A stretch of 55,112 bases of DNA, taken from contig JBMFMH010000002.1 in NCBI GenBank assembly GCA_049970775.1, positions 1 through 55,112 on the forward strand, in the 5' to 3' direction. This document shows, piece after piece, positions 375 through 53,734 of the stretch. Source of the DNA: a bacterium (GTDB taxonomy: Bacteria; Armatimonadota; JACIXR01). The number at the start of each line of letters is the position of its first letter. Position 1 is the stretch's first letter. The position numbers were made by a program, and so were the translations under genes. The notes beneath the pieces were generated by a model, which saw only the letters and a list, made by a program, of their open reading frames with translations, ran no database searches and was not told where the DNA came from.

Positions 375-1238
375 ATGCTTAAAACCAATGTTGATAGGTT
401 GATTGAAACCTCCGTGAGAGGGGAGGTCATTCAACCTCGTGTTTGGCTACCCCAGATAAGTCATAAGGGCGAACCTCTATTTCTTCCCTCTACCGGTGGC
501 ATAACTTACAATGTGAAAATAGGGGATAGCGCCTTCGGTTGGGTCGGCGACCATATAGAGCCAGGGGTAACCATAAGGGCAAAGGACGAAAGTGAGAATT
601 CGGCCCTCAACATCCTTGCCTGTATCGGAAATATAGCCAAGGTAGTAAGCGGCGATGCTAAAGGAGAAACCGGTTTCGTCACAGGAAAACATGGCGGGGC
701 TGAGCACATCCTCGTTTACTTTCCTCCCTCTGTTTTGGAAAAGTTGAACATAGGAGACCAGGTTTTAGTAATGGCAAAAGGGCAAGGATTGAGAATCATC
801 GGATGGGAAGATGTGTTCATCTGCAACATAGACCCTGGGCTTTTGGATAAGCTCAACATAGAGGAAAAGAATGGCAAGCTCATCGTCCCCGTTGTGGCTG
901 AGGTGCCTGCTCACTTAATGGGTTCGGGGATAGGTTCAACCCAGGTTGTGAGGGGAGATTATGACATAATGACCGCAGATAGAAGAGAGATTGAAGCCTA
1001 TGGATTACAAAACCTCCGCTTGGGAGATTTTGTGCTTTTACGGGATTGTGACAATACTTATGGAAGGGGATTTCTCAGAGGTGCTACTTCTGTGGGTGTA
1101 GTTATCCATAGCGATTGCGTATGGACGGGGCACGGTCCAGGGGTTACCGTTGTTATGTCCAGCAAAGAGGGGAAAATTGAGGGAAGGATAGATGAAAACG
1201 CAAACTTGGCGAACTACTTAAACATCGCCTCTATTTAA
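375..1238 (+). CDS. Conserved hypothetical protein, DUF4438-like (287 aa)
   Basis: Strong SD (AAGGAGGT) 7 nt upstream of the ATG and a long clean ORF. Length and sequence character match my recollection of the DUF4438 family. No catalytic motif was recognised. Confidence 0.8.
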   Translation: MLKTNVDRLIETSVRGEVIQPRVWLPQISHKGEPLFLPSTGGITYNVKIGDSAFGWVGDHIEPGVTIRAKDESENSALNILACIGNIAKVVSGDAKGETGFVTGKHGGAEHILVYFPPSVLEKLNIGDQVLVMAKGQGLRIIGWEDVFICNIDPGLLDKLNIEEKNGKLIVPVVAEVPAHLMGSGIGSTQVVRGDYDIMTADRREIEAYGLQNLRLGDFVLLRDCDNTYGRGFLRGATSVGVVIHSDCVWTGHGPGVTVVMSSKEGKIEGRIDENANLANYLNIASI

Positions 1239-1941
1239 AATATCGCTTGAGACCGATGACCTTCCCTATTATCCGTAAGCGCTTCTCCCTTATATCCACG
1301 ATTATAGGAGGATAAGATGGATTGAGGCTTTCCAACTTCACCTGGGTATCTTGTTTAATCACTTTCTTCACGGTTGTTTCAAATCCGTCTTCCGTCTCCA
1401 GAGAGACGACGGCGATGTCGCCGTTTTCAACATCGTCCTGCTGGCGAACGATTATGAAGTCCCCGTGCATTATCAATGGATACATACTATCGCCCGTGGC
1501 ACGGAGTGAGAAAGTGGCTCCTGGATATTCATCCTCATAGATCAAGATGTAGCCGAGCAATTCTTCCAGAGCTTCGTAGGGTTTTCCGCAGGGGACCTCA
1601 GCAATAACTTTAAGCAACTTCATACCCCTCGGCAGGGAAGGGGAGAGCTTATCCCCTGGAGGATAGCCGAGACGAAGCAGAAGAGGGGTAGGGTCTATTC
1701 CCATCTGGGCTCCGATTTCCTGAAAAAGGGATAAGACATCTATTCCCAATACGGAAGCTATCGCTTCAATAGTGGAGCGGCGGGGGAATGTGAAGCCTCT
1801 CTCAAGGCGGGAAAGCACGCTTGCGGAGATGCCAGCTTGGGAGGAAAGGTCGCTTAGACGCATTCCTCTTTCCTCCCTTAAAATGCGCAGGCGTTCTCCT
1901 AAAATCCTTTTAAATCTACCAGTTATTTCTCTCACACTCAT
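1231..1941 (-). CDS. XRE-type HTH plus S24 peptidase repressor (LexA / phage-CI-like)
   Basis: The N-terminal HTH is ILGERLRILREERGMRLSDLSSQAGISASVLSRLERG. The C-terminal S24 autopeptidase core is GDSMYPLIMHGDFIIVRQQ with a downstream ...GKVIGLKR. It overlaps the convergent DUF4438-like gene by 8 nt. Confidence 0.9.
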   Translation of the reverse strand: MSVREITGRFKRILGERLRILREERGMRLSDLSSQAGISASVLSRLERGFTFPRRSTIEAIASVLGIDVLSLFQEIGAQMGIDPTPLLLRLGYPPGDKLSPSLPRGMKLLKVIAEVPCGKPYEALEELLGYILIYEDEYPGATFSLRATGDSMYPLIMHGDFIIVRQQDDVENGDIAVVSLETEDGFETTVKKVIKQDTQVKLESLNPSYPPIIVDIREKRLRIIGKVIGLKRYFK

Positions 1942-1950
1942 TTTTTCTCA

Positions 1951-2288
1951 GAGAAGGTGGGTCTATAAGCCAGGTTCTGTACCAGCCATTAGCTGGCGAC
2001 GACCATTTATCTATGCGACCTACCCGAGGAGTCAGCGAGCAGCTTCCTTCTCCTCCTATTTGGTCTTGCTCCGGACGGGGTTTGCCTGGCCGGAAGGTCA
2101 CCCTTCCGCCGGTGGGCTCTTACCCCACCATTGCACCCTTGCCCCTGCCCCTTTAAAGGGGCGGTGGGCGGTATGTTTCTGTGGCACTTTCCATAGCTTT
2201 CGCTATCTGGAGTTGCCTCCAGCGTCCCGCTCTACGGAGCCTGGACTTTCCTCGCCTCAAAGGCGCGGTCGTCCGACCCACCTTCTCC
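1951..2288 (-). ncRNA. rnpB: RNase P RNA, bacterial type A
   Basis: On the minus strand, the 5' GGAGAAGGUGGGUC pairs with the 3' GACCCACCUUCUC to form P1. The hallmark blocks GAGGAAAGUCCAGGCUCC (P4 5'), GGUAAGAGCCCACC, GCAAACCCC, CAAGACCAAAUAGG and ACAGAACCUGGCUUA (P4 3') are all present in the correct order. Confidence 0.92.
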
Positions 2289-12602: not shown

Positions 12603-15365
12603 CTATAGAAATACTCCCTGTTCAGAAGGTCTTAGCTCCTCACTGCATTCCTTTATTCTGCCGTTTTCCATAAATATGTAGTAATGGAAAAGATTGGGAT
12701 TGAGGAGTGGCGTGTGGCTTATAACGAATATTTGGTCAAATCTTTCCGCTATTTCACCTTCCGTAATCACCCTAATTAACGCCTCTTTTCTCTGCTCATC
12801 AAAAGAGGAGAGAGGTTCGTCAAGGAAGAGGAAGGAAGGGGCTGTTCCTCTCTCCTGAGGAAGAGAGGCGAGGGCAAAGGAGAGGCGAAGGGCAAGGGAC
12901 ATTTGGTCTCTTGTTCCTCCACTGAAGATATTCTTATCCTTCCAATCTCCCGCTCTCTCATCAAATACCCTGATTTTGAAGGTCTCAGCGTCAAGGTCAA
13001 CCTGCCGATATCTGTCATTGGTTATAAGAGGGAGGATACGCCACATATGGTCAATGGTGCGAGGGAGAATCTTCTGGGTTATATTTCTCCTCGCTGTCTC
13101 CAAAATCCTCACGCTCAGCTCCCTCACCTTATGTTCCCTCTTCAATTTCTCGTATTCCTCTCTACATTGTTCAAGAGGCGGTATATCACCTATTATCTGT
13201 TCCTTAAGTAGCTTTTTCTCCCTTTCTAATTGGATAAGTTCAGCCCTTTTCTCATTAAGGGTTCTGCTTATTTCCTCAAGTGGTGGGAGGTCGGAGGGGA
13301 ACTCTCCTCCCAACTCTTTGAGCTTTTCATCTGCTTTCTCCTCCAATTTGCTTGCTTCCTCCCTCAAAGAATCTATCTTCTGCCTTTGGGCACCTAAACG
13401 GGATATCGCCGATTGCAGTCTTTCCTCAGGTCGTTCCCTCTCCAATTCGTCCATTCTCTTTTTCAATTTTATTCTCAACCTTTCCCATTCCTCAAAGGAA
13501 AAGATGTCCGAAACCTCGCCCTCAAAAACCTTTGCATCCTCTTTTATTTTTTCTCTTACCTCCTCTATTTCCCTACCCATCTCTTCCTTCTTCCTGTTTA
13601 ATTCGCTTTCCTTTGAAATCAAATTCTCTAAGCTTCTGATTTCGCTATCAAGCTTTCCCAAATCTTTCGTTAAATCCTCCATTTCTAAAGATAGCCCATA
13701 CCTTACCGCTATTTCCTTTATTTTCTCGCTCCTTTCGCTTATTATTTTCTCCGTCTTTTCCTGTCTCTGGACCACCTGCTCCCGAGTGGAAGTCTGGAAG
13801 TAAGGAGGAAAATTAACGAGTTCTCTTTCAATGCTACCCACTTCTATCTCCAATCTCCTGATTTCCGTTGACAGTTTTTCTTTTTCATTTTCCAACTTAT
13901 TTTTCTCCTCTTCTTGCTTCACAAGCTCCCTTTCAATCCACTCTTCCTCTTCAGGAATCAACCCATAGCTTTCAAGTTGTCCCTTGATTTTCTCCCTCTC
14001 GTCAATATCAACCTTTCCAATTAATGGTTCTATTTTAGCGATTTTTATCAGGAGGTTTCCCCGTTTAATAAAGGCAACGATTCCACAGGCGAGGGGAAGG
14101 AGAGCAATTAAAGAGAGCCATTTCAATGGTGAGAGAATGAGCAGAAATAGAAGCACAGCGCTGCTTATCCCAGCAATACCACAGGTTTTATAAAAAGAAG
14201 CTCTCCCTTCCAGTTCCTTCTTTTTCTCTATATACGCCCTTTTCCCTTCTATATCCTTGAGCTTCTGCAGCAATTCCTTTATATTCTCTTTTTCCTTTAT
14301 CTTCTCCTCTTTGGCTTTTAAATTTAACTCCAATATACTTTTCTTGCTTTCTACCTCCTCCAACTGGCTTTGCAATTGCATCCACTTCTTAATCTCATCC
14401 CTTAGCTGAAAGAGCTCCTTTAACTTCTTTAAAATATTGAGCAAGGTGCTTGCCTTTCTCCTTTTTTCTTTGATGGAGGGAAGACTTTCCTTAGCCCCTG
14501 CTACTACCTCAATCTCCTTGCCTATGCTTTCTAATGTTGCCTCTTTCTCTTTAAGCAGACGAAGCGAGGAAATCAAGTTATCAACCTTGTGCTCCTTGTT
14601 TCTCAATTTCTTTAGTTCATCCGCTTTTTTCTGCCAATTGTTCCTTTCCTCCTCAAGGACAGGTATTTTCTTCTCTTCCTCATCTGCTTTCTTCCTATTA
14701 TCTTCCGCTTGGACTCGTAATTGTTTCACTTCCCAAAATCCTAAAAGTCTTTCATTACGGGAAATCTCTTCTTGGATTTCAGGGATTTTCTCCCCTATTT
14801 CCGCCAGCCGAACCTTCCGCTCCAAATCCTCTACTTGCCTCAAATCCTCCCTTTTCAAACTAAGCTCCTCCTCAATCGCTTGCATTCTATCCAAATTCAA
14901 CAGCTTCATAACAGCGCTCTCCCTAGCAGACCTATCCATTCCTTCCAGCCTTTCCAAAGCCTTTTGTTCAACAAAACAAGAATTAAGAAGGGTATCAGCA
15001 TCCAAATGGAGTTCCTCTTGTATTCTCCTATTGACTTCCCTAACGGTTGTCAACAATTCATTCCCGATACGAAGCTTCGCTACATTCGTTCTATTTCTCC
15101 TTATCCTCCGCTCCACTCTAAGCAAATCGTCGGCTAGCTCCAGTTCAAGATAAACAACCGCTTCATTCAGCCCATAACCTATTAACTCCTCCGTGCTTCT
15201 CGCTTGTAATGCCCTTCCGAAGAGTGCGAAGAAAACAGCTTCAAAAAGGGAGCTCTTACCCGCCTCATTGCTTCCTTGGATGAGAAATGTTCCCTTAGAA
15301 GGAAACCTAAGGTCTATCCCACGCAAGTGCTTAAATCCCTCAACAGCCAATCTCTTAATCCTCAT
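12603..15365 (-). CDS. rad50: Rad50/SbcC-like SMC-type ATPase; lacks a zinc hook and has a central hydrophobic hairpin
   Basis: Motifs seen: Walker A GSNEAGKSS, signature SGGTRDQMSLALRL, Walker B FLFLDEP and H-loop VISHTP. Long K/E-rich coiled-coil arms are present. It lies 3 nt downstream of mre11. Confidence 0.9.
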   Translation of the reverse strand: MRIKRLAVEGFKHLRGIDLRFPSKGTFLIQGSNEAGKSSLFEAVFFALFGRALQARSTEELIGYGLNEAVVYLELELADDLLRVERRIRRNRTNVAKLRIGNELLTTVREVNRRIQEELHLDADTLLNSCFVEQKALERLEGMDRSARESAVMKLLNLDRMQAIEEELSLKREDLRQVEDLERKVRLAEIGEKIPEIQEEISRNERLLGFWEVKQLRVQAEDNRKKADEEEKKIPVLEEERNNWQKKADELKKLRNKEHKVDNLISSLRLLKEKEATLESIGKEIEVVAGAKESLPSIKEKRRKASTLLNILKKLKELFQLRDEIKKWMQLQSQLEEVESKKSILELNLKAKEEKIKEKENIKELLQKLKDIEGKRAYIEKKKELEGRASFYKTCGIAGISSAVLLFLLILSPLKWLSLIALLPLACGIVAFIKRGNLLIKIAKIEPLIGKVDIDEREKIKGQLESYGLIPEEEEWIERELVKQEEEKNKLENEKEKLSTEIRRLEIEVGSIERELVNFPPYFQTSTREQVVQRQEKTEKIISERSEKIKEIAVRYGLSLEMEDLTKDLGKLDSEIRSLENLISKESELNRKKEEMGREIEEVREKIKEDAKVFEGEVSDIFSFEEWERLRIKLKKRMDELERERPEERLQSAISRLGAQRQKIDSLREEASKLEEKADEKLKELGGEFPSDLPPLEEISRTLNEKRAELIQLEREKKLLKEQIIGDIPPLEQCREEYEKLKREHKVRELSVRILETARRNITQKILPRTIDHMWRILPLITNDRYRQVDLDAETFKIRVFDERAGDWKDKNIFSGGTRDQMSLALRLSFALASLPQERGTAPSFLFLDEPLSSFDEQRKEALIRVITEGEIAERFDQIFVISHTPLLNPNLFHYYIFMENGRIKECSEELRPSEQGVFL

Positions 15366-15368
15366 TTC

Positions 15369-16535
15369 CTACCTAACCTCCCTCCACTTGGAGAGCGCCA
15401 AATCAAGAGCAGATTTAATAAGTTCCCTGTCCTCTTCAAGGCTCTCAGCGACGCTTTTGAGTTCCTCTTCAACACTCGTTGGACCATTATCTCTTCCCAC
15501 ATAACCAGCTCTCTTGAGCCTCAAACCTTGCCAATCAAAATCAAAGAAGAAGTTCATAGTGCTTCCTTCCCTGTAAATATGAACAAAGGGAATTTCCCTG
15601 AGGATATCGTTCTCTATTTCCCCCATCAACTTGCACTTCAACAGCTTTTCCGGATGGGAAACGCTCTTAATGCGAGATATTATATAATTTAGACGCTCAT
15701 CCTTTGGTCTATGTTTGAACTCTTCGCAGTGAATTTCTAGGTTTTGCATAGGTTGAGCGGATATTTTTTTATAGCTAATCCTCGGCTTCTCCGCTATCTC
15801 AAGGAGATAAAAACCAGTTTCGTTTTTCTCCTCACCGAAATCAATCCTCTCTGTGGCGCCTGGTATGATGACGAGTTTGTTTCCTAAATCAAAGTGGAAA
15901 TGAGGATGTAGGTGTCCAGCAATTAGGAGGTCAAAGGGAATGGCACGAAGGGTATGAAGGGAAACAACTGCGCCTTCATAATTCGGTGGCATCCTTCCTT
16001 CTATCGCATAGTGGAACATAAAGATACTGAAATCACTGTTTATAGAAGGGAACTGTAACTTCTCCAGGGGATTGCCATCCCTCACCCTTGGGTCGCAGGA
16101 AACCCCAGCTATGGTGATTCTCTTCCCCTTAACATCAATTACTTCCGTTTCAACTGAATATTGTTGCTTGAAAACTTTCACTGCACCGATAACATCCAAG
16201 AGATAGATACAAGGTGCGCCTCCTGCCTCATATCTTGCCTTAGGTATATCGTGGGTCCCGCCGATGAGAAACGACTTTATTCCTGCGGATTTCAATCTCA
16301 TAAACTCGTTAAGGACAAATATCAGTTCTGAATAGCGCGGGTCAGGCATATCAAATATATCGCCTGCGTGGAGGAAGATATCAGCTTTCTCCTCAATTGC
16401 AAAGTCAACGATTTGCTTAAAAGCGTTTCTAAGATATTCCCGCCTCTTCTCAAGCTGTTCCGGTCTCATCTTCGCGTAGTAGGCGTTAAGGTGCGTGTCG
16501 GCACAGATGACGATTTTCACCGCTTCAGACACCAA
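15369..16535 (-). CDS. mre11: Mre11/SbcD-type metallophosphoesterase nuclease
   Basis: Motifs seen: KIVICADTHL (motif I), FLHAGDIFD (motif II), GGTHD, and GHLH followed by HFH. The true start is probably the GTG at 16520 (MKIVICADTH). It is tightly coupled to the herA stop. Confidence 0.9.
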   Translation of the reverse strand: MVSEAVKIVICADTHLNAYYAKMRPEQLEKRREYLRNAFKQIVDFAIEEKADIFLHAGDIFDMPDPRYSELIFVLNEFMRLKSAGIKSFLIGGTHDIPKARYEAGGAPCIYLLDVIGAVKVFKQQYSVETEVIDVKGKRITIAGVSCDPRVRDGNPLEKLQFPSINSDFSIFMFHYAIEGRMPPNYEGAVVSLHTLRAIPFDLLIAGHLHPHFHFDLGNKLVIIPGATERIDFGEEKNETGFYLLEIAEKPRISYKKISAQPMQNLEIHCEEFKHRPKDERLNYIISRIKSVSHPEKLLKCKLMGEIENDILREIPFVHIYREGSTMNFFFDFDWQGLRLKRAGYVGRDNGPTSVEEELKSVAESLEEDRELIKSALDLALSKWREVR

Positions 16536-18234
16536 AATCCATCTCCCCTAATTCATCATCAATGAATGTTTTTCTCGTTGCCTTATCGGATATCGCCCTC
16601 TTTAGCTCCTGAACGATGTCAACATCGGCGCCACCCTCAGCTGATTCTCTTCTACCAACCTTAATCATAACGGGCACCCTCGTAAGCTCTCCCAGAACGA
16701 CCGCTTCCCCAGTATTCAAGCCCGGCAAATCAGCGAGAAGGGCTTCGGAAATGTTCTCGGAAGCCATACGAACTGCCTTCTGGTCCTCGGGATTGGTAAG
16801 TTTCATTATTATCTGGCTTCCGCATTGGGAGAGAGTATCTTGGTTAATCTTATAAGGACGCTGGGTTATAACCACGAGGAACACCTTGAATTTTCGTCCT
16901 TCCGCAGCGATTTTATTTATTATCTCGGCGCATCTGCTCGGTTTTCCTCTTCCGGGAACGAAGTTATGCGCCTCCTCAAGGAATACGAACAAAGGTCTTG
17001 GCAACTGTCCAAGCACCGCTTTTTCCCATATCCCTCTCAGCGTCCTATCAACGACTATCTCCATTGCCCTTTGCTGTAAACCGGCGAGGTCTATTACCGA
17101 GAGGGTTTGGGGAGAAATTATCTCGTCCAAGGGGAGGTCTTTATCGCCCCATATCTCCAAGGAGGCGAGACGGTCAACATAAGGCTTTACCCTCCTTAGT
17201 TCCTCATAGGAGGGAGCCGAGCCCTTATCCTTCTTCTTTTTCGCCTTGTTTTGCATCTCAGCGGTAATCCCCTCAAGCATCTCCTCGTTTACATCCTCAG
17301 CGATTTCCTCAAGCTCGCCTCCTAAATCATCTGAGCCCAACATTTCCTCAACCGCTTCCTTGAGCATTTGAGGGGTAAAATAGGGGCTTTGCTTTTTTAA
17401 GATGTTGAACAATATTGTTAAAGTATCCCTTATGCGAGTCCAGCTCTCTGGAATTTGTGCTATTTCAAATATATCCTCATCCTCCAAGGTCCAAAATCTT
17501 ATGGTGTATTCCTCACTTCCACCGATTTTGTCGTCGCTATACCTTCTTTCCGCTTTTAGGGGGACCCTATATACTCTAACGAAATGGGAGAAGGGGGTTC
17601 TCCTTCCATCAGGAGTTAAACGCATCATAACATAATCAGAGTTTGGGTCAAAAACAAGAATAGTTGCCCCGAGTTTCAATAGGTTTTCCAAGAGAAGACC
17701 AGCGAGGTAGGATTTTCCAGCGCCCGTTTGAGCGATTATAGCGAGGTGTCTTCTCAAGCCATTGGGGTTCAACACCACCTCAACGCCTTCCCTATTAATC
17801 AGGTTTCCAATTGGGATGCCGTATTCCACATCTTTGGAGAAGAAGTTGCGAAGGAAATCATCAGAGGCAAGGTAAACGGGCTGACCGGGAAGGGGGGTAT
17901 GGCGAGGCAATTTAACCGTTCCCTCAGGGGTAAGATAGCCCAATACATCGGCTGTTCCGATTATCTTTGGGCGAGGGGCAATTCCCTCCAAAATAGCCCT
18001 CGTTTCCTCAAATGTCAGTTCTTCTCCCAATATCTGAGATGCCACCTGAAGGCGGCTAACTTGAGCGAGGACATCAACTCGTTGAAGCCCAGGCTCAATT
18101 GCAGGGACATCCCTCACAACGAGATATTCAAGGCGAGGCGGGCAAATGCTCGGTTCAGTAACAAAGTTGAACCTTTGGGTTTCCACATTCCCAACTATAT
18201 ATCCCACTGGTTCATAGCTTTTCACAACCTCCAT
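16525..18234 (-). CDS. herA: HerA-type (DUF87/FtsK-like) hexameric ATPase/translocase
   Basis: Motifs seen: Walker A IIAQTGAGKSY and Walker B LFVFLEEAHNFVP, plus VVITQRP...IIMKLTN. The N-terminal barrel-like region has the pattern GYIVG......F. Confidence 0.9.
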   Translation of the reverse strand: MEVVKSYEPVGYIVGNVETQRFNFVTEPSICPPRLEYLVVRDVPAIEPGLQRVDVLAQVSRLQVASQILGEELTFEETRAILEGIAPRPKIIGTADVLGYLTPEGTVKLPRHTPLPGQPVYLASDDFLRNFFSKDVEYGIPIGNLINREGVEVVLNPNGLRRHLAIIAQTGAGKSYLAGLLLENLLKLGATILVFDPNSDYVMMRLTPDGRRTPFSHFVRVYRVPLKAERRYSDDKIGGSEEYTIRFWTLEDEDIFEIAQIPESWTRIRDTLTILFNILKKQSPYFTPQMLKEAVEEMLGSDDLGGELEEIAEDVNEEMLEGITAEMQNKAKKKKDKGSAPSYEELRRVKPYVDRLASLEIWGDKDLPLDEIISPQTLSVIDLAGLQQRAMEIVVDRTLRGIWEKAVLGQLPRPLFVFLEEAHNFVPGRGKPSRCAEIINKIAAEGRKFKVFLVVITQRPYKINQDTLSQCGSQIIMKLTNPEDQKAVRMASENISEALLADLPGLNTGEAVVLGELTRVPVMIKVGRRESAEGGADVDIVQELKRAISDKATRKTFIDDELGEMDFGV

Positions 18235-18241
18235 TTTCCTT

Positions 18242-19375
18242 TTAAAACCTCCTTCCGAATCTCGTATCCACTTTGCTCCTTCGTATGGGAAGCCTCGTGA
18301 GCTCCCTTAGGAGGGTAAGATAAACATCCTGGTCCCTATCCCTTAGGATAATCTCGTTATGGGCAGCGTAGAGAAGAGTTTGATAGACATTGAACCCTCC
18401 ATGGGAGGAAAGAAGCACGGAAAGGATTGGATAAATTAGTTCCTCATCCCGTATAGTTATCTCCTTTAATTCCTCTTCATCAGCCTTTATTCCAAGGGAG
18501 GAGGAAAGAACATCAACCCTATACACTTCATCGCCCTCCTCAAAGCGGATGTAGAAAATGACGACTGAGAGGAAAGGGAGTACTTTTTCAAGGCGGGAAG
18601 AAACCTCCTCACTCTTAGGGGAGGAAATAGAATCAAGGAAATCCCTTTTCACTCTCTCCCAGTCCCAGGGTTGAGGGATGACATAAGGACCAACGAGAAG
18701 GGGAGTTGAAAAACCGACGCCTTCCGTCCAAAAGGAGAAAACCTCCAAATCCGTTATATCGGTTTCCTTGTTCAATAACAGTCTCGGATAGAAGTGTCCC
18801 CGGCTCGTTTTGGATATCCCGATGAGCTTTATGTTGTATTGCATAGTAGCTTCAAGGAGGGAGAGGAAAGCTTCCAGCGCTCTCAGGGGCATATCCTCCA
18901 GTCCCTCCGGCATCCGCTGAGCGAACCTCGCCCAGCTAAGAAGGACGAGTGGTATGTAAAGGCTTCCATCAAGGAAGAGGAAGGAATTGCTGATTCTTTC
19001 TTTATAATCGCCACCGATTTTCCACTCCAACCACTGGCGGTGCACTTGATGAAACCTTTCCACATCAACCTTTTGGGTATCCCTGAAAGCCTCCACATCC
19101 ACTTCCACTTCCCTCCAATCCTTCCCTTGGAGAAGCGCCTGCACTATTGAAATGTATCTTCCACCCTGAACGGCAAGGCAAGCATTTGAACCATCTATTG
19201 CGTAAAGGGGAGAGTCGCAGGAGGGGAGAAGCTCGGGGAGGGGATGCCAAAAACGGGCGACCTCTTTTTTCAAGAAGGATTCATCTTCATTTCTTGGCTC
19301 ACGCATAAAAAGGGTGTAGAGTTTGTCTTTCTTGATATTTATATTCTCGGCGAACTTATTAGGGTAGCAGGGCAA
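18242..19375 (-). CDS. nurA: NurA-domain 5'-3' nuclease
   Basis: The catalytic-type motifs LYAIDGSN and FLFLDGSLYIP (NurA D...DGS pattern) are present. It has a TTG start with an AAGGAGGG SD 5 nt upstream and lies 7 nt upstream of herA. Confidence 0.8.
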   Translation of the reverse strand: MPCYPNKFAENINIKKDKLYTLFMREPRNEDESFLKKEVARFWHPLPELLPSCDSPLYAIDGSNACLAVQGGRYISIVQALLQGKDWREVEVDVEAFRDTQKVDVERFHQVHRQWLEWKIGGDYKERISNSFLFLDGSLYIPLVLLSWARFAQRMPEGLEDMPLRALEAFLSLLEATMQYNIKLIGISKTSRGHFYPRLLLNKETDITDLEVFSFWTEGVGFSTPLLVGPYVIPQPWDWERVKRDFLDSISSPKSEEVSSRLEKVLPFLSVVIFYIRFEEGDEVYRVDVLSSSLGIKADEEELKEITIRDEELIYPILSVLLSSHGGFNVYQTLLYAAHNEIILRDRDQDVYLTLLRELTRLPIRRSKVDTRFGRRF

Positions 19376-19397
19376 GGCTTCCCTCCTTTTTTAAAAA

Positions 19398-19426
19398 ATT
19401 ATATTTCCATACTCTTTCTCTGTCAA
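19398..19426 (-). promoter_or_regulatory. Perfect sigma70 consensus promoter (TTGACA-17-TATAAT) upstream of nurA
   Basis: On the minus strand, TTGACA is at 19426-19421, followed by a 17-nt spacer and TATAAT at 19403-19398. This is about 10 nt upstream of the SD of nurA. Confidence 0.68.
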
Positions 19427-26188: not shown

Positions 26189-27817
26189 TTGATGACGAGC
26201 TTCAGGGAATTCGTCCTCGTTTGTGAAAAAATAGAAAAAGAAAGTGGTAAGAAGGAAAAGGCGAGACTGATAGGGGAATTTCTTCAACAGCTCTCCCCTA
26301 TTGAAGCTAAAATCATTTCCTATCTTTTCCTCGGCCGCTTTCCGGCGGGAAAAAGAATATTTGTTTCCTGGAACACACTCATTGATGTCCTCGGCGATAT
26401 GTTCCCCATTTCACCGGAAGAGATGGCAAAGATAACTGAAAATGCGCTTGATGTAGGAGACATCGTTGAGGGGATATATAAGCGATGGGATAGATACACT
26501 TCCAAGGGGTTAAGCATTCAAGAGGTATACGAGCATCTTGAAGGATTGGCTGTTCTTGAGGGAAAAGGCGCTATGCAGAAAAGGAAAGCTGTATTGAAAA
26601 GACTTTTAGCGAGTATGGATGAGCTTGAAGCGAAATACCTCGCTAAAGTCATAGTGGGAGAAATGAGAATTGGGGTGAAAGAAGGAATGATTCTGGAGGG
26701 ATTAGCCAGCGCTGTTGGACTTCCCCTTAATGAAATAAGGAAGGGTTTTCTCCTTTTAGGTGATATAGGGGAGACGGTTCGGGCTTTTATAGAGAAAAAG
26801 GAAAAAACCTTGAAATCTACCTCCCTTACCCCTTTTAAACCTCTTCAGCCAATGCTTGCTCAGATGGCGTATTCCTTAAAGGAAGCTTTTGAGGAAATAG
26901 GGGATGAATTGGCACTTGAGTTCAAATATGATGGAGCAAGAGTGCAGATACATAAGGAAAAAGACAAGGTTATGATTTTCTCCCGCCGCCTGAACGATTT
27001 GACGCCTTCCCTCCCGGAGGTAGTGGAGGAAGTGAAAAGGGAGATAAAAGGAGATGTTATTTTGGAAGGGGAAGTAGTGGCTATAAAAGAGGGTAGGTTC
27101 CTCCCCTTTCAAGATATCCTTAGAAGGATAACGAGAAGGAAGGAAATAGAAAAGATACGGGGAGAAATCCCTTTAAAGCTCTTCCTGTTTGATTGTCTAT
27201 ATTTGGATGGTGAGTCCTTGTTGGATATCCCTTATGAGGAAAGATGGAAAAGATTAGAGGAAGTAGCGGGAGGAATTTCTCTTGCGGAAAGGATTTTACC
27301 GAGAAGCCTGGAGGAAGGAGAGCGCTTCCTACGGAAAGCCTTGGAAATGGGTGCCGAGGGAGTTATGGTTAAGGCTTTGAAAGGGATATATACCCCGGGA
27401 AGCAGGGGGAAACTCTGGCTTAAAGTGAAAAAGGCGATAACTTTGGATTTAGTGATAATAGGGGCGGAGTGGGGATATGGAAGGAGACATAACTGGCTAT
27501 CCGATTATCATCTTGCTTGTTGGGATAGAGAGCGGAAAGAGCTGCTAATGGTGGGGAAAACCTTTAAAGGATTGACCGATGAGGAATTTGAGGAGATGAC
27601 GAGGAGACTTCTATCCTTGAAAGTAAAAGAAGAGAAAGGGATAGTTTATGTCAAGCCTGAGGTTGTGGTGGAGGTAGCTTTCAGTGATGTTCAGAGGAGC
27701 TCAAAGTATAAATGCGGGTATGCCCTTCGCTTGGCGAGGATTTTGAGGATAAGGGATGATAAAAAGCCTGAGGAAGCGGACGATATCTCGGCGATTGAGA
27801 AGCTGTATCAAGCCTAA
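26189..27817 (+). CDS. lig: ATP-dependent DNA ligase, three-domain archaeal/eukaryal Lig1-like type
   Basis: Motif I is EFKYDGARVQIH (KxDG), followed by LEGEVVA, LFLFDCLYLDG, EGVMVK...LWLKVK and the C-terminal OB motif LRLARILRIRDDK. The probable start is the ATG at 26192. Confidence 0.9.
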   Translation: MMTSFREFVLVCEKIEKESGKKEKARLIGEFLQQLSPIEAKIISYLFLGRFPAGKRIFVSWNTLIDVLGDMFPISPEEMAKITENALDVGDIVEGIYKRWDRYTSKGLSIQEVYEHLEGLAVLEGKGAMQKRKAVLKRLLASMDELEAKYLAKVIVGEMRIGVKEGMILEGLASAVGLPLNEIRKGFLLLGDIGETVRAFIEKKEKTLKSTSLTPFKPLQPMLAQMAYSLKEAFEEIGDELALEFKYDGARVQIHKEKDKVMIFSRRLNDLTPSLPEVVEEVKREIKGDVILEGEVVAIKEGRFLPFQDILRRITRRKEIEKIRGEIPLKLFLFDCLYLDGESLLDIPYEERWKRLEEVAGGISLAERILPRSLEEGERFLRKALEMGAEGVMVKALKGIYTPGSRGKLWLKVKKAITLDLVIIGAEWGYGRRHNWLSDYHLACWDRERKELLMVGKTFKGLTDEEFEEMTRRLLSLKVKEEKGIVYVKPEVVVEVAFSDVQRSSKYKCGYALRLARILRIRDDKKPEEADDISAIEKLYQA

Positions 27818-34438: not shown

Positions 34439-36322
34439 TTACATCATTCCAATTCCCAGAGTTGAGTAGAGGACCAAGGAGATTGTTCTTCCAAGGTAGT
34501 GTCCCACTATCAGCCCGATGAAAAAAGGGGTTGCTTTATTGAAGGTCTTTAGCCCACCCCAGCGAAGGAGCGCCAACTTAACCAGCCAAGCGCAGAAGGC
34601 ACCCAGATAAACCGCATAAAGAGTGAAGGAAGAAGCAATCGCCAAACCTATGGGATGGATTGGCCACCATACGAAGCGAAGATGAAGAAATGTGAAAAGC
34701 CCCATCATCACCGCACCACCTAAAGCCCAGAGAAAATATTCTGCCTTAAAGCCAAAGGGATTTCTTATCTGGCTGAGCACTTGCTCGTAGGTGTTTGGTC
34801 CCCAGCCCTTGAATATCCAGGTGTTCCAGGTTAAGGTTCCCTGCTTGTATCCCGTGTAGATTATGAAAAGGGGAGCAACTATTAAGCCTATACCAGCGGA
34901 TAAGAAAAGGGATAGAGAGAAATGCCAGCCTTTTGCGCGCTTTGCCTCCCATAATCTTGCTCCCTCAGCGGAGAATACGGAGAAGACATCCTGAGTATCG
35001 CCATGCCAGGAATAAGATAAGCCGAGGGAGACCATCCCTTGATGACCGATGAATTTGCTACCGAAACCGAATATGCAGATATTCTGTGCTATGACAGGTG
35101 GAACTATGTAGAATATTCCCGATTGACAAACGATGCGAGAAAGTCCGATGTAGATGAGGATAACGAAGAGCAGGAAAAAGAAAGCTATTAGAAAAGACAT
35201 CCCTGAGCGATGAAGCCAGAAAAGGAGATAGGAAAAAGAGAGGAGAAGGAGAGGAAGGAGGAGGCGAGGGGGAATCAACTCCTCAACAGCTGATTCTTTT
35301 TTAAAGAAGCTTAAAAGGAGGTTGAAAATGTGGCGTCTTGCGAGGAGGATGGAGGAAATAGTGAAAACGAGGAAAGCGCCCAATGATTGCCAGGCAATTG
35401 CTGCGTTTCCCCAAACGAACATCCCTCCTGAGCCTAAAGCGATTGCGAAACGATGGAAGAGCGCCTCTTCAATTAAGGTGAGAACATAAAAGAACCAAAT
35501 TCCACACAATACATCGGTGGGAACGAAGAAGCCAACGCCAAAGGCAAGAAAATTGAAACATAAAAGGGGCTGGCTTCTAACCGGGGTCCATCCCCAATCC
35601 AAACACCCTATGTGGTCTACAGGTAAGGAAGGAAGGGCTGGAATGTAGAGATGAAGGGCTTGTTCAGCCATAATGAGAAAGGGAATGCTTACCCCAATCC
35701 AAAAGAGGGATTTGCGGAAGAGCCCTTCTCTTCCCCTTTCAACAAGGAAAATGGGAACTTGCATCAATGGATAGGAAAGCTTCTCGTTTTCCATCCAATA
35801 TCTTCTAAAAAGGGTTATCACTGTATAGGAAGCGATAAAGAGGATGAAAAAGAAAGGAAGCCAATGGGAAAGTGGGGTTAGCCAAGCTTTTATGGGGATA
35901 CTTTCTCCTTCAGGCAGCCCTTCAAAAAACCATTTCGCAGCAAGTTTATCATTTACAAATAAATTAGGTTTAATATAAGGAATGAGGTCTTTATGCCACT
36001 TATTTTCCGGGGAGGCGAAATATAAGGGAGAAGCAATTGCGGAAAGGAACATATAGATGAGGAAAATTGGGGTGGAGTTCGCCACGAGTGCCATCGCGAA
36101 GATTACGAGGAGCTCCCCTGAGGTCAAGCCGAGGCAAGGCTTAATGCGAGATATTATGAAATTGATAAGGAGAAGAAAGATGAAAGGTATGACCGCACCT
36201 TCGGGTAAATAGCTCCAAGAGAAATTGCTGAAGGCTCTGCTTTCCGTGAGGGGGGAAAGCGTGTTTACAAAGACAGAAAGGAGAATCCCGATGAAAATAG
36301 CCCTGAAAGTTACAGCTTTCAC
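34439..36322 (-). CDS. Polytopic membrane protein (about 16-18 TM segments), function unknown
   Basis: The 627-aa ORF is continuously hydrophobic. Its GTG start overlaps the stop of the upstream S55-like gene by 4 nt (GTGA). No transporter signature was recognised. Confidence 0.85.
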   Translation of the reverse strand: MKAVTFRAIFIGILLSVFVNTLSPLTESRAFSNFSWSYLPEGAVIPFIFLLLINFIISRIKPCLGLTSGELLVIFAMALVANSTPIFLIYMFLSAIASPLYFASPENKWHKDLIPYIKPNLFVNDKLAAKWFFEGLPEGESIPIKAWLTPLSHWLPFFFILFIASYTVITLFRRYWMENEKLSYPLMQVPIFLVERGREGLFRKSLFWIGVSIPFLIMAEQALHLYIPALPSLPVDHIGCLDWGWTPVRSQPLLCFNFLAFGVGFFVPTDVLCGIWFFYVLTLIEEALFHRFAIALGSGGMFVWGNAAIAWQSLGAFLVFTISSILLARRHIFNLLLSFFKKESAVEELIPPRLLLPLLLLSFSYLLFWLHRSGMSFLIAFFFLLFVILIYIGLSRIVCQSGIFYIVPPVIAQNICIFGFGSKFIGHQGMVSLGLSYSWHGDTQDVFSVFSAEGARLWEAKRAKGWHFSLSLFLSAGIGLIVAPLFIIYTGYKQGTLTWNTWIFKGWGPNTYEQVLSQIRNPFGFKAEYFLWALGGAVMMGLFTFLHLRFVWWPIHPIGLAIASSFTLYAVYLGAFCAWLVKLALLRWGGLKTFNKATPFFIGLIVGHYLGRTISLVLYSTLGIGMM

Positions 36323-39300
36323 ATCACTAAGAAATCCATCATATCTTCAATTGCATCATCTGCATCGCTTTGTTTTGGGCTCTTCTCATTTTGCGTTGAG
36401 GGCTTATTTTCTTTCTCTTTTTGTGCTTGGGGTGGCTGAGCTTCCTTCTTTGGAGGCACAACTTCTTCTATCTTCTCTATTTTTCCTTCCTTACCAATCG
36501 TTATCTTTTCCTCCAGGGTTGTTTCATTTTTTGCTGAATCCCTTGCCTTTATCTTCAAGGTAATTTGGGAAAGATTGCCCTCAGGAATTTGCGCCAAAAT
36601 CGTAAATGGCTCTTGCGTAGTGGAGAAAAGACCTTTGGATGGATTGGCACTGTAGAAGATATCTCCTCCGACGCTGTAGCTTACTTCTGTTACCGGGCTG
36701 AGGTTGTCCTCCGCTAAGCCCTCAAGATAAATCTTCCCATCAACAATCTTAACCGTGTCCTTATAAACGGTTATGCGTGGCGGTGTATTATCAATCTTTA
36801 TCTCAATCACCTTTTCCGCACTGAGTGCCCGAGAAGGAGGGTTACTACCGGCATCGGAAACCACGAGTTTGAGGAAATAGCGACCATCCTTTTTATCTTT
36901 AGTGTTAAATTGGTATTGATTCTTTCCCTCTACCTCGCCCACCTTCTGCCAATTTTTCCCATCCTCGGAAATATAAATCGTTGTTATGAGGGTATCGTTG
37001 TTAGGGTCCGCTGCTTGCCATTTTATCTCGGCTGAGCCGGATAGGGAATCCCCAAAAACAGGAGAAGAGATGGACAGGGTAGGGGGAAGGTTTTGCGGGA
37101 GGAGATAGACGGTAACACGGTGAAGGGAAGGCGTTTGTGAGGCGTCGTTTGTTGATAATTTAGCCCTGTATTGAAGGTAGCGAGCGGGGGGACTAAGGAT
37201 GCTTCCATCTGGTCCAAGCGGTGCCCAAAGACTCCATCCCTCATCGGGTAGAGGGGAATTTCCGCTCCTCGTTTCTATCTGCAACGAACAGGGGGAAGGG
37301 ATATCCGCCTCGTAGGTTATCCTTCCCCACTCACAAGTAATCCCACCATCAAATACGGAGGAAGTAAAAGTCCCTTCCTTCGCATAGGAGGAAGTTGAGA
37401 GAAAAATTGTAGGCGGATTACTTCCCAAAGCGATTATTCCCTTCCTTGCCCTTAAAAAACCGGTGATGTCAGAGCTATCCGCCTGAAAGGCGAAACCCCA
37501 TCTATCAGTGCGAGAAGGGTCAAGGAGGTAAATTCTTCCGTTGTTGCTTGTTCCAACAAGGATATGCCCAGATGTATCAATTAGGCTATAGATTGCTCTC
37601 TCCTTAGTATCCGCTATCTCAAAAAGCCCTCTATCCGTTATGCGGAGAATTTTTCCACCGGGAGCAGTGCCTATATACACATCTTTGCCCACGCTCAATA
37701 TAGCGCTCACCGTTTGGGAATTTGTGGAATAGAAGGAGCTCCCGCTTTCCCTATAGAAAATAACCAATCCTTGTGGTGATGTGCCGAGTATCAGAGCATC
37801 GTCTTTCTCTCCCAGCTTCACGATGTGCTGGTCGGGAGCGATGTATATAAGAGTGGCTTTTCCCTCGGGAGAAAGGGAATATAAGAACCCCTTTTCCCCA
37901 CCGGTAGCCACTATAAGCCTATTCTGTTGAGGAAGCAAATCCCAGATATAATCAACGGGAAGGGTGGCAAAAGGAGAGAGCGTTCTATTGCCGATATCAA
38001 CTGTGTAGATGTTGCCTCCAGGGAAGGAAGCAGCGATTATCTTCCCCTGCCAATTGATTAAGCGTAGACCTATTTCATTGGTCTTAATAATTTTTTCCAC
38101 CTTTCCATCCGAGGATATCTTGAAGATAGCGCCCGTGCCCAAGGTAGTAGCGAGGTAGTATTCACCCTCATCCAATGCCGAGAGGAAAAGGGAGCCGGGC
38201 AGGGTAGCTATTTTCTCCCATTTGGGAGCCAGGATTATCTCTCCTCCCTTTGTTACAACAACACTTTTTATCTCGCCTTGGGCGAAATCCTCGTATTTCG
38301 CTTGTATCCATACCCTCTTTGAGGGCACGGAGGGAGGTGCTGGAGCGCTCGGAGGAGCTTGAGGAACCTCCGCCTGCGGCTGGGGAGGAGGTTGCTGGGG
38401 TTGGGCTTGTTGCGGTTGTGCCATCCCCGTTCTCATAAGGGCGGAGATGAAAGAGGAGGTTTTCGCTGAATAAAAGAATATTTCCTCCTCTCCGCCAGTT
38501 GGAATGGAGGCTGGTGTTGGGACTTCCTCCTGAGGTGCACCGGAGGGCAAGGCAATTGCGGGCGCCTTACCCGTCTTTGAGATAATTATCGGTATGTTTT
38601 TAACCCCTGATATCACCCATTCCGTATCAAAGGAGGAAACTGAAACATAAGGAACACGACGAAGCGCTGTTTCCTTACTTGAAGTTATCATCTCCTCAAT
38701 TCCCGTGGGTAAAGGGGATAGTAGTTTATCCTCCAACTGTATGCGGGAACGAGACATAACTAATGAGACAACGAGATGATTATTTTGAGGAATGTCCTCA
38801 ATTAATTTGAGGAGGTCAAAAAGATTGGTCGGTGTTTTAAATCCCATTACCTGTGGCGGGATATAAGCCCCACCACCAACATAAATCATCGCTCTCCCCT
38901 CCGGTGCCTCGTAGGGGATGTTAAGGGCTATGGGGAAGGTTATCGGGTCCTCGCTTCCGTATTTTTTCAGATAAACTGTCAGAGAGACTTTATCCCCCGG
39001 TTTAACGATGTTCTTGTCAATGGATAACTTCTCAATCCTTGCCAACTTTCTTCCTTTGTCCACCTCAACTTGAACGCTAACCCTTTCCGGATAAACAGCC
39101 TGGAAAATGTTATCACGGAGCAAGGAGAGTATATCCTCAAGGAAATAGGAGGAATCTAAACCTGCCCCTATGGATGAATAGAAGATGTCCCTCTTCCTTA
39201 AGTGTTTTCCATCTTCCAGCTGAATATCCAATGAAACCTTGCTCATAACATCTACAGGGTCAGGGAAGGAAAGGAAGAGAGCGTTTTCCACAGCGGTCCC

Positions 39301-40311
39301 GATTAGGGCATTGGTTAAGGATGGATGCTTAACCACTTCCACATTGAACCTCTGCTTTTTATCCCCATTAATGATGATGATGGAGACGGGGACCATATGA
39401 GGAACTATCCCGGTTTTCCCGCTTATTGAGAAGTAGCCGTCCCTTGTTAGGGAGCCGATGACATCACCAGGCGAGCCCAATTTAGTTGAAATAGCCAAGC
39501 TCGGGATGATATCGTGTATATAGGCGGTTACAGCTGGCATCTGGGCATCTCCCATATCCATCATAGAGTGCCCGAAGGCGAGCCATTCTCCCTTTTCATT
39601 TATGTAAGTTAAAGTTCCTATCGCCGTTATCTGCATATCGCCGCTCATCAACTGACAACCAAGTGCAGCCCCTGGAACTAAAGGGGCTTTCACCTGCATC
39701 TTTCCTCCTCCTGGCGACTGCATAAAAATGAAACCCGCTTTCTCAAAAATGGAGGACGCCTTTTCCAACGCTTTAGGGTGAAAGCCTGAAGCTATCAAGG
39801 GAATGGCAATGGGAACCATAGTTACATATTCATCGTTTCCCGTCGTTTTTATCCCCATTTCCCTTAAGAGCGAGCTCTTCACCCTTAGCTGTGCACCGCC
39901 GATGGGAACTTCCTTGTTGGCTGAGACAATCATATTTTCTATCGGGGTTATGCCGGCAAGAGGTTCAAGGGAATAGCGCCAGGTCAAGGCTACTGCTCCT
40001 ATCAGCTTGCCGTTTATATAAACTGGGCTTCCGCTCATTCCCGCTATCACTTTGGCATTTCTTTGCGTTATGGGACCGCCTGAGAGGCGAGCCAAGATTA
40101 TATCTCCTGTGATGTTGTCCTTGGGGAGAACGCCTAAAATTTCCACATCAAACTTTTCTATTTTTGTTCCCTTGAATACAGTGAGACCATATCCCTTCAT
40201 TCCCGGCTTTATATCCTTCACCCGCATCATAGTTTTGGGGTCGAAGGACAAGGCGAAACCCAAAAGAGATAGCAAAATAGGAAAAATAAATCTCAAAACT
40301 TTTCTTGTCAA
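36319..40311 (-). CDS. Giant secreted protein: N-terminal SpoIVB-like S55 serine peptidase domain, PQ-rich linker, propeller-like repeats, Ig-like domains
   Basis: A TTG start has a GGAGGAG SD 6 nt upstream, and a signal peptide is present. MKGYGLTVFKGTKIEKFDVEILGV...AGMSGSPVYINGKLIGAV matches the S55 trypsin-like core. The linker is AQPQQAQPQQPPPQPQ. The tail is K/E-rich and ends acidic. Confidence 0.8.
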   Translation of the reverse strand: MTRKVLRFIFPILLSLLGFALSFDPKTMMRVKDIKPGMKGYGLTVFKGTKIEKFDVEILGVLPKDNITGDIILARLSGGPITQRNAKVIAGMSGSPVYINGKLIGAVALTWRYSLEPLAGITPIENMIVSANKEVPIGGAQLRVKSSLLREMGIKTTGNDEYVTMVPIAIPLIASGFHPKALEKASSIFEKAGFIFMQSPGGGKMQVKAPLVPGAALGCQLMSGDMQITAIGTLTYINEKGEWLAFGHSMMDMGDAQMPAVTAYIHDIIPSLAISTKLGSPGDVIGSLTRDGYFSISGKTGIVPHMVPVSIIIINGDKKQRFNVEVVKHPSLTNALIGTAVENALFLSFPDPVDVMSKVSLDIQLEDGKHLRKRDIFYSSIGAGLDSSYFLEDILSLLRDNIFQAVYPERVSVQVEVDKGRKLARIEKLSIDKNIVKPGDKVSLTVYLKKYGSEDPITFPIALNIPYEAPEGRAMIYVGGGAYIPPQVMGFKTPTNLFDLLKLIEDIPQNNHLVVSLVMSRSRIQLEDKLLSPLPTGIEEMITSSKETALRRVPYVSVSSFDTEWVISGVKNIPIIISKTGKAPAIALPSGAPQEEVPTPASIPTGGEEEIFFYSAKTSSFISALMRTGMAQPQQAQPQQPPPQPQAEVPQAPPSAPAPPSVPSKRVWIQAKYEDFAQGEIKSVVVTKGGEIILAPKWEKIATLPGSLFLSALDEGEYYLATTLGTGAIFKISSDGKVEKIIKTNEIGLRLINWQGKIIAASFPGGNIYTVDIGNRTLSPFATLPVDYIWDLLPQQNRLIVATGGEKGFLYSLSPEGKATLIYIAPDQHIVKLGEKDDALILGTSPQGLVIFYRESGSSFYSTNSQTVSAILSVGKDVYIGTAPGGKILRITDRGLFEIADTKERAIYSLIDTSGHILVGTSNNGRIYLLDPSRTDRWGFAFQADSSDITGFLRARKGIIALGSNPPTIFLSTSSYAKEGTFTSSVFDGGITCEWGRITYEADIPSPCSLQIETRSGNSPLPDEGWSLWAPLGPDGSILSPPARYLQYRAKLSTNDASQTPSLHRVTVYLLPQNLPPTLSISSPVFGDSLSGSAEIKWQAADPNNDTLITTIYISEDGKNWQKVGEVEGKNQYQFNTKDKKDGRYFLKLVVSDAGSNPPSRALSAEKVIEIKIDNTPPRITVYKDTVKIVDGKIYLEGLAEDNLSPVTEVSYSVGGDIFYSANPSKGLFSTTQEPFTILAQIPEGNLSQITLKIKARDSAKNETTLEEKITIGKEGKIEKIEEVVPPKKEAQPPQAQKEKENKPSTQNEKSPKQSDADDAIEDMMDFLVM

Positions 40312-40409
40312 GTTGGTCTCCTCCTCTTAAATTTTCTTTCTCAAAATTTTATAATAAATTCAACCATCTTGCAAAGCAAAAAGAAGTCCGGAAAAGGAGC
40401 GGAAAATTT

Positions 40410-44303: not shown

Positions 44304-44308
44304 GGGAA

Positions 44309-53248: not shown

Positions 53249-53734
53249 TTATCCCGCCAACTCCGAGGCTATTTTCCCAATCTTTTCTATCAAGGTATTG
53301 AAATCGCCTAAATTTCGGATTATCTCTTCCAGATATTCCTCCTTGAAAACCACAAAGCCATTCTCCAAGACGGTGAAATACTTATAGAAAGCTTCTAATC
53401 TTTTTTTGTAAACCTCCCTGTTTCTCGTGCGAGGATTTCTTATCCTCTTTTGTATTTCCTCCAAGTTATATACCGGATATGGCACCTGGACGATTTTTCT
53501 TCTTGTCTTGCCACTTCTCGCTTCCTTCCTCTCGCTTATCTTGGCTATCTGAAAACCTATATCTATATCCCGCACCATCGCATCTATTCCCTTTGCATCC
53601 AATTCAGCGTTGCAAATCAATTCATAGGGCATCCCTATCTTCGTGCAAACATATTCAAACATATAGCAGAAATCAAGTTGAGTAAGCAGAGAAACCCATG
53701 TTCTATACATTCTTGCTTTAAACCCTCTCAACAA
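53249..53734 (-). CDS. Candidate short restriction endonuclease partner of the TaqI-like methyltransferase (R.TaqI C-terminal-half-like by my recollection)
   Basis: The TTG start overlaps the methyltransferase stop by 7 nt, matching the M-then-R order with overlap seen in the TaqI system. The block ELDAKGIDAMVRDIDIGFQIAK is PD-(D/E)XK-like. An in-frame TAG lies one codon upstream of the start. Confidence 0.5.
   Translation of the reverse strand: MLRGFKARMYRTWVSLLTQLDFCYMFEYVCTKIGMPYELICNAELDAKGIDAMVRDIDIGFQIAKISERKEARSGKTRRKIVQVPYPVYNLEEIQKRIRNPRTRNREVYKKRLEAFYKYFTVLENGFVVFKEEYLEEIIRNLGDFNTLIEKIGKIASELAG

Follow-up and report, generated by a model that had tools for sequence, protein, structure and literature searches.

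A nurA-herA-mre11-rad50 operon in a bacterial chromosome encodes a Rad50-like protein with a hydrophobic, putatively membrane-inserted hairpin in place of the zinc hook

How does a complete NurA-HerA-Mre11-Rad50 set come to lie in a bacterial chromosome, and what might it do there? The list of open reading frames (ORFs) of contig JBMFMH010000002.1 of an uncultivated bacterium (assembly GCA_049970775.1) contains four adjacent genes, nurA, herA, mre11 and a rad50-like gene, all located on the minus strand at 12603-19375. We analysed the whole stretch of 55,112 nucleotides (nt), which we call the window and to which all coordinates refer. A preliminary description of this DNA had taken the complete cluster for an archaeal hallmark and had offered two origins for it, horizontal acquisition or a bacterial lineage that keeps the full module. 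Here we argue, with moderate confidence, that the cluster is a native chromosomal DNA-end-processing operon in which the apex of the Rad50-like protein sits in the membrane or, failing that, serves as a hydrophobic dimeriser instead of the hook.

The Rad50-like protein has an intact ATPase head. It matches Pfam AAA_23 (E = 2e-18), SMC_N and Rad50 models (about 4e-30), and Walker A (G31..K37 S38), Q-loop (Q134), signature (S815-G-G), Walker B (D849-E850), D-loop (D856) and H-loop (H884) are all invariant in 32 homologues. A long antiparallel coiled coil splits these head motifs, as expected of Rad50/SbcC. The AlphaFold model, calculated with 32 homologues in the input (mean predicted local distance difference test score, pLDDT, of 82), has a long helical arm, and the best structural match of the whole model in the PDB is Rad50. 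The zinc hook is taken to define Rad50/SbcC, but a motif search for C-x-x-C found none in the whole protein. At the reversal point of the coiled coil (relative position 0.45) the protein carries the sequence TCGIAGISSAVLLFLLILS-PLKW-LSLIALLPLACGIVAFI. Residues 394-433 have a mean Kyte-Doolittle hydropathy of 2.09 over 40 residues, and the hydrophobic stretch is bounded by K on its N-terminal and by KR on its C-terminal side. In the AlphaFold model the apex forms a helical hairpin consisting of a helix (376-411), a turn (412-416) and a second helix (417-449), with an S-P turn at residues 411-412. When HerA, NurA and Mre11 were checked in the same respect, no comparable hydrophobic segment was found. 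In place of the zinc hook the apex of the coiled coil carries two predicted hydrophobic helices; neither the loss of the hook nor the hydrophobic apex had been noticed in the preliminary description.

The same apex recurs throughout the relatives. All 20 complete Rad50-like ORFs that adjoin genes of this HerA clade combine a hydrophobic apex with the lack of CxxC, whether they come from bacteria or from Bathyarchaeia. Among the best 120 database homologues the apex is present in 101, carrying labels that include Nitrospirota, Chloroflexota, Armatimonadota, Dictyoglomaceae, Lokiarchaeota and 'Candidatus Harpocratesius', while a central CxxC occurs only in the 6 weakest (E 2.6e-14 or weaker) and both features together in none. 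One of the hook-less homologues, a protein of 1568 amino acids (aa) with a hydrophobic apex, is encoded in Candidatus Harpocratesius sp. (Asgard; locus L082, 5444-15535) with an unannotated 393-aa gene on one side and BrxL-like and AAA_5 genes on the other, a context that resembles a defence island and is unlike that of the window. The uncharged apex block has a median length of 38 residues across the family, and it is conserved as hydrophobicity, not as sequence. In its 10-aa flanks K+R amount to 31% and 18% and D+E to 12% and 8%, against a background of 15% and 17%; this enrichment in K/R fits the positive-inside rule for a hairpin that has both ends in the cytoplasm. In the literature searched, which did not extend to the main classification papers (e.g. 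Iyer 2004, Krishnan 2020), no membrane-anchored Rad50 was described, nor did any paper connect SbcE-like proteins with HerA-NurA.

Taken together, hydropathy, flanking charge and predicted fold suggest that the apical helices insert into the cytoplasmic membrane or, at the least, take over from the hook as apical dimerisation element. Alternatively, the complex might be soluble and the apex a dimerisation knob, such as a four-helix bundle, which is buried between proteins and takes the place of the zinc hook. One study describes the hook as a constitutive dimerisation unit for which an SMC hinge can be substituted (PMC6969161), so that any apical dimeriser could do the hook's job. Moreover, Bacillus subtilis SbcE (YhaN), an SbcC-like SMC protein without CxxC, has a 'unique' hydrophobic central domain with a conserved proline that was reported as insoluble, not as membrane-inserted (PMC2811018). 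The family, however, conserves nothing but hydrophobicity at the apex, as is typical of lipid-facing helices, its two stretches of about 18 residues are parted by a short turn, and the K/R enrichment is found on both flanks, so that we regard a soluble knob as rather unlikely.

The other three proteins could be assigned to their families by profile searches, supporting the gene identities given in the preliminary description, including those of NurA and HerA, which it had named as the point where its view might fail. NurA matches Pfam PF09376 (E = 4.5e-18, 66 bits compared with a cut-off of 21) and was assigned to this family of 5'-3' nucleases. D61 and D136 are invariant in 44 homologues, and the third metal-ligand position is occupied by H339, with His in the window's clade and Asp in most homologues elsewhere. 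A comparison of NurA with PDB sequences gave no match, its identity resting on Pfam. HerA matches PF01935 (6.7e-34) and the NCBIfam models for double-strand-break/repair-type HerA (2e-58 and 3e-55), with anti-phage HerA models (about 1e-27) well behind, and scores 198 bits compared with an NCBIfam equivalog cut-off of 970. Its nearest solved structures are those of the repair-type HerA of Thermococcus kodakarensis (9x1l, 5.9e-47) and Sulfolobus (4d2i, 6.2e-42), with those of anti-phage HerAs (1e-27 or weaker) ranking lower. Across 81 sequences there is no variation in Walker A (GAGKS), Walker B (EEAH) or the motifs GRKF and TQRP. Mre11 was identified by matches to Metallophos (1.3e-11), Mre11_Sulfo (1.8e-25) and the Mre11 structure of Methanocaldococcus jannaschii (1.2e-13). 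All five phosphoesterase motifs (I-V) align, with the D, H, GD and GHxH residues retained; motifs I and III (residues 14 and 94) read DTH and GTHD in the window's clade instead of the usual DNH and GNHD, the Thr at the metal-ligand position of motif III being present in 12 of 55 homologues. By sequence, the nearest solved structures for Mre11 and Rad50 are from M. jannaschii and Thermotoga.

A HerA profile was run against GTDB genomes, one for each species, and the best 80 loci were compared, 61 of which carry a bacterial label. A contiguous and co-oriented NurA-HerA-Mre11-Rad50 set is present in 15 of these 61. The three closest loci (L001-L003), which come from metagenome-assembled genomes of the window's own lineage, have a HerA that is 72-77% identical and the same four genes in the same order. 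The remaining sets are found in Dictyoglomota (L042, L066), Ktedonobacteria (L063, the cultured Ktedonobacter sp. SOSP1-85, L064 and L071), Chloroflexia (L054), other Chloroflexota and Anaerolineae (L036, L052, L065, L067, L068) and on a contig labelled Candidatus Krumholzibacteriaceae (L049, DATKWN010000071.1). One locus from Anaerolineae (L009) has the same order with an insertion of 1.8 kb, three others (L040, L061, L074) are interrupted by contig ends and are consistent with the four-gene arrangement, and at L070 nurA-herA-mre11 is followed by about 1 kb in which no Rad50-like match was found. Many Anaerolineae have a HerA of this clade without a detectable adjoining NurA, and 17 loci of Bathyarchaeia show the nurA-herA-mre11-rad50 order. 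The four-gene module is therefore common in several bacterial phyla, including Dictyoglomota and three classes of Chloroflexota. Together with the cluster already reported for Oceanithermus (PMC5448004), these 15 loci do not agree with the complete cluster being an archaeal hallmark. A common and vertically inherited arrangement is the very outcome that the preliminary description had set against its own view, and the survey, together with composition and synteny, largely bears it out. The insertion at L009 (10059-11767) encodes a 382-aa AAA-type ATPase and a 233-aa protein between herA and mre11 and could be a defence-like cassette that landed in the cluster. An additional conserved partner gene was considered and rejected, as the herA-mre11 inserts of some Anaerolineae and Caldisericota (AAA ATPase, deacetylase-like, others) are mutually unrelated.

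Composition, synteny and trees all bear on the origin of the cluster. The four genes have a GC content of 0.43-0.48, and their GC, GC at third codon positions (GC3) and codon usage lie inside the spread of the window's other 27 genes. The operon is surrounded by sugar-metabolism and housekeeping genes, and its downstream flank, GHL10-UROD-like-melibiase-PepX, is syntenic in L001 and L003, holding across genomes that have diverged to 50-80% amino-acid identity. The relatives of RecO fall into about 13 clusters at 59-79% identity, followed by a drop to at most 42% outside the lineage. In a neighbour-joining tree of HerA the bacteria form phylum-coherent clades, the Bathyarchaeia form one separate clade, and the lineage of the window is placed with Armatimonadota and Caldisericota. 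Beyond that lineage, each of the window's four proteins has bacteria as its nearest neighbours. The pairwise distances of the four genes correlate (r = 0.92-0.95, 18 loci), indicating that the module evolves as a unit. Based on the HerA and RecO relatives and the shared flanks, the host looks like a deep lineage and the cluster like core, vertically inherited content. The HerA from the contig labelled Candidatus Krumholzibacteriaceae (L049) nests among Bathyarchaeia next to L059, and its gene layout matches L050 and L051; this contig probably represents archaeal DNA that was mis-binned.

A recent horizontal acquisition from thermophilic archaea would be in line with the first description of the four-gene set in these organisms (PMC2288612), with the archaeal origin of the best NCBIfam and PDB matches of HerA, Mre11 and Rad50, and with the Bathyarchaeia carrying the same subfamily. 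Nevertheless, the native composition, the conserved flank, the bacterial neighbours of all four proteins and the nurA-first order, which is the bacterial one of Oceanithermus, make such an event extremely improbable, and we rejected it. Neither the comparison of codon usage and GC with the rest of the window nor that of phylogeny and neighbours, both of which the preliminary description had proposed, lends support to an acquisition, and of its two suggested origins only the bacterial lineage that keeps the full module stands. An ancient transfer between the domains, in either direction, is possible. Carriage by a mobile element or virus was likewise rejected: tblastn searches of plasmids and phages gave only partial matches to the ATPase core, none of which covers at least 80% of HerA, and no relative of this HerA was found among the IMG/VR viral contigs.

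The coordinates of the operon and its signals are collected in Table 1. Spacing, order and strand of the four genes are as first described: nurA and herA are separated by 7 nt, mre11 and the rad50-like gene by 3 nt, and herA and mre11 overlap by 11 nt or are separated by 4 nt, depending on the start of mre11. The alignment with relatives favours the GTG at 16520 as the probable true start, resulting in the gap of 4 nt. The consensus promoter and the strong Shine-Dalgarno sequence in front of nurA were also corroborated, TTGACA-N17-TATAAT being the sole perfect match in the window, where shuffled sequences lead to an expectation of 0.01. The three closest loci have a promoter-like site at the same position 5' of nurA and keep both the Shine-Dalgarno sequence and the N-terminus MPC(Y/F)P; their upstream genes differ from those of the window, and the position of the promoter is nevertheless kept. 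This suggests that the four genes are transcribed from their own strong sigma-70-type promoter. We looked for an intrinsic terminator 3' of the rad50-like gene and found none.

Table 1. Operon genes, expression signals and apical hairpin, with positions in the window.
Feature	Position	Strand	Description
nurA	18242-19375	-	377 aa, TTG start
herA	16525-18234	-	569 aa, hexameric FtsK/HerA-type DNA translocase
mre11/sbcD-like nuclease gene	15369-16535	-	388 aa counted from the TTG at 16535
rad50/sbcC-like gene	12603-15365	-	920 aa, SMC-type ABC ATPase without zinc hook
-35 hexamer TTGACA	19421-19426	-	half of a perfect 12/12 consensus promoter
-10 hexamer TATAAT	19398-19403	-	17-nt spacer from the -35 hexamer
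Shine-Dalgarno sequence AAGGAGG	19382-19388	-	6 nt before the TTG start of nurA
Hydrophobic helical hairpin	14067-14186	-	Rad50-like residues 394-433, TCGIAGISSAVLLFLLILSPLKWLSLIALLPLACGIVAFI; putative two-helix membrane anchor at the coiled-coil apex

The flanking genes are bacterial, as the preliminary description had stated, and comprise those for RNase P RNA of class A (249 bits), RecO, AroQ and an XRE-S24 repressor. The latter (1231-2284, minus strand) combines an XRE helix-turn-helix with an S24 peptidase, is LexA-like without the LexA DNA-binding domain and lies directly downstream of the RNase P RNA gene. An ATP-dependent DNA ligase with the three domains DNA_ligase_A_N, _M and _C (E down to 8e-57) is encoded at 26189-27817 on the plus strand, 7 kb from the operon, and is a second DNA-repair enzyme of archaeal/eukaryal type in this bacterium. 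Close to the end of the window (53249-55020, minus strand) we identified a TaqI-like restriction-modification pair, whose methylase (430 aa) looks complete; the endonuclease ORF of 161 aa covers profile positions 92-229 of 229 and may be N-terminally truncated or mis-started. Three very large genes are located at 36319-47671. The product of the first (1330 aa) matches only an S55 peptidase and an immunoglobulin-like (Ig-like) domain, that of the second (1332 aa) contains GH2-type sugar-binding domains, and that of the third (1123 aa) has no Pfam match.

For the native end-processing operon that we favour, we infer biochemical activities, membrane insertion and physiological role as follows. 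By homology with the archaeal and Deinococcus systems, an Mre11 nuclease dimer together with the Rad50-like ATPase would bind and trim DNA ends, and a HerA hexamer would then pump the duplex into a NurA dimer, where the 5' strand, or the duplex as a whole, would be degraded. RecO, whose gene also lies in the window, could then mediate the transfer of the 3' tail to RecA. The end-processing complex may work tethered to the membrane via the Rad50-like apex, as we also propose here for SbcE and its partner SbcF (YhaO). Several observations weigh against this picture. None of the four proteins reaches its NCBIfam equivalog cut-off. The Thr that replaces the metal-ligand Asn in motif III of Mre11 means that nuclease activity is not assured. 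Membrane insertion is a prediction from hydropathy, the charge of the flanks and the modelled helical hairpin. Rad50-like homologues without a hook are also encoded apart from HerA and NurA, standing alone (L081) or beside BrxL-like genes (L082); the four-gene link is thus not obligatory, and the apex variant is older or broader than this link. Finally, a 2026 study of HerA-NurA from T. kodakarensis questions the role in resection and suggests the degradation of foreign DNA instead (PMC12977600).

Defence of this kind is the main rival for the role of the module: a membrane-tethered Mre11-Rad50 complex would sense the free ends of entering linear DNA, which HerA-NurA would destroy. HerA ATPases are core components of several anti-phage systems, and the window's HerA matches the PADLOC HerA models (2.5e-48); similarly, Rad50-like/SMC proteins sense DNA ends in Lamassu, and the window's Rad50-like protein matches the LmuB model (3.5e-26). 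These HerA and SMC matches are generic, however, and PADLOC has nothing for NurA or Mre11, so that we rejected a known defence system. In addition, HerA resembles repair-type HerA (1e-58, 1e-47) far more than it does anti-phage HerA (about 1e-27). The putative membrane location would suit the interception of incoming DNA, and the hook-less Asgard homologue has its BrxL-like neighbours. Defence genes are typically patchy and mobile, whereas the operon lies in a stable syntenic context on the chromosome, among sugar-metabolism and housekeeping genes, its phylogeny is phylum-coherent, its four genes co-vary, and no full-length relatives of HerA were found on plasmids, phages and viral contigs. 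HerA-NurA of T. kodakarensis cuts both strands, for which the authors suggest an antiviral role (PMC12977600). Weighing these points we consider defence an unlikely role, and DNA-end processing the better supported one.

A second membrane-proximal role would be the processing of DNA taken up in natural transformation, paralleling SbcE and SbcF at the competence pole. In competent cells these two proteins localise to the pole, and transformation is mildly reduced when sbcE is lost (PMC2811018). The hydrophobic apex of the Rad50-like protein makes action close to the membrane plausible, yet the window contains no competence genes, and the parallel presupposes that its protein is an orthologue of SbcE. 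Furthermore, DNA uptake in transformation delivers single strands, whereas HerA-NurA acts on duplex ends. We therefore regard this role as very unlikely.

The operon represents a widespread and under-annotated NurA-HerA-Mre11-Rad50 subfamily of bacteria and Bathyarchaeia, with a hook-less, probably membrane-anchored Rad50 as its trait. The four-gene cluster as such is no surprise and had already been recorded for Oceanithermus. Its native and widespread occurrence in Chloroflexota, Dictyoglomota and others corrects the view of bacterial herA-nurA as a Deinococcus-Thermus peculiarity that came from archaea, and a 2026 paper still calls it a Deinococcus-Thermus feature of archaeal origin (PMC12977600). 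A conserved family in which the hook is swapped for a probable membrane anchor provides a natural experiment on the purpose of the hook, as well as a hypothesis, open to testing, for the hydrophobic central domain of SbcE, which lacks an explanation so far, and the cultured carrier Ktedonobacter sp. SOSP1-85 makes a hook-less Rad50 experimentally approachable. More tentatively, as a generalisation that we find possible but would not yet bet on, the zinc hook may have been swapped for a two-helix transmembrane hairpin in a large Mre11-Rad50 subfamily of several bacterial phyla, Bathyarchaeia and Asgard, often hard-wired to HerA-NurA. If true, DNA ends would be recognised and resected in these organisms by complexes tethered to the cytoplasmic membrane. 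Double-strand breaks would then be processed, or incoming DNA intercepted, in a distinct manner, and SbcE of B. subtilis would, with its central domain, provide an example of a transmembrane-hairpin apex.

Compared with the archaeal operon of Sulfolobus, Pyrococcus and Thermococcus, the window has the same four families in one co-oriented cluster, a HerA that is most similar to these repair-type HerAs, and presumably the same division of labour, with end recognition by Mre11-Rad50 and long-range resection by HerA-NurA. It differs in having nurA first, as the archaeal order (Sulfolobus, Pyrococcus) is reportedly herA-mre11-rad50-nurA, in the hydrophobic hairpin of its Rad50-like protein instead of the CxxC zinc hook of archaeal Rad50, and in its bacterial host, which uses RecO/RecA. 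Oceanithermus profundus shares with the window both the bacterial four-gene set and the gene order; there, sbcD-sbcC lies downstream of nurA-hepA (herA), which was read as an archaeal-like architecture for double-strand-break repair (Blesa et al. 2017, PMC5448004). HepA of Thermales is about 27% identical to archaeal HerA (PMC5448004), and the HerA of Oceanithermus belongs to a different clade from that of the window, no Deinococcota being present among the best 80 HerA loci. The nurA-herA pair of Deinococcus radiodurans and Thermus thermophilus acts as a helicase-nuclease on DNA ends (PMC9960219), but, unlike the window's genes, forms a two-gene operon that is unlinked to mre11/rad50 (PMC9960219, PMC5448004, PMC12977600).

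With the anti-phage systems Sir2-HerA, DUF4297-HerA and Lamassu (LmuB) the operon has in common the pairing of a HerA-type hexameric ATPase with an effector of the nuclease type, as well as an SMC-like DNA-end sensor. Their effector partners Sir2, DUF4297 and LmuA are, however, absent from the window's locus, where HerA is partnered by NurA and Mre11, the similarity is weaker than that to repair-type HerA, and the locus is stable and without association with mobile elements. The nearest described analogue, compared here by description, is SbcE/SbcF of B. subtilis, in which SbcE is encoded directly downstream of the SbcD/Mre11-like SbcF and contributes to double-strand-break repair and transformation (PMC2811018). 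This pair is unlinked to HerA/NurA, with yhaM downstream instead, and membrane insertion was not proposed in the SbcE paper (PMC2811018). The N-terminus of the window's Rad50-like protein matches the YhaN-type Pfam family AAA_27 (1.6e-8), a weak and partial match that is weaker than the one to AAA_23. Like SbcE, the protein lacks CxxC, has a hydrophobic central domain and is encoded next to an upstream SbcD-like nuclease.

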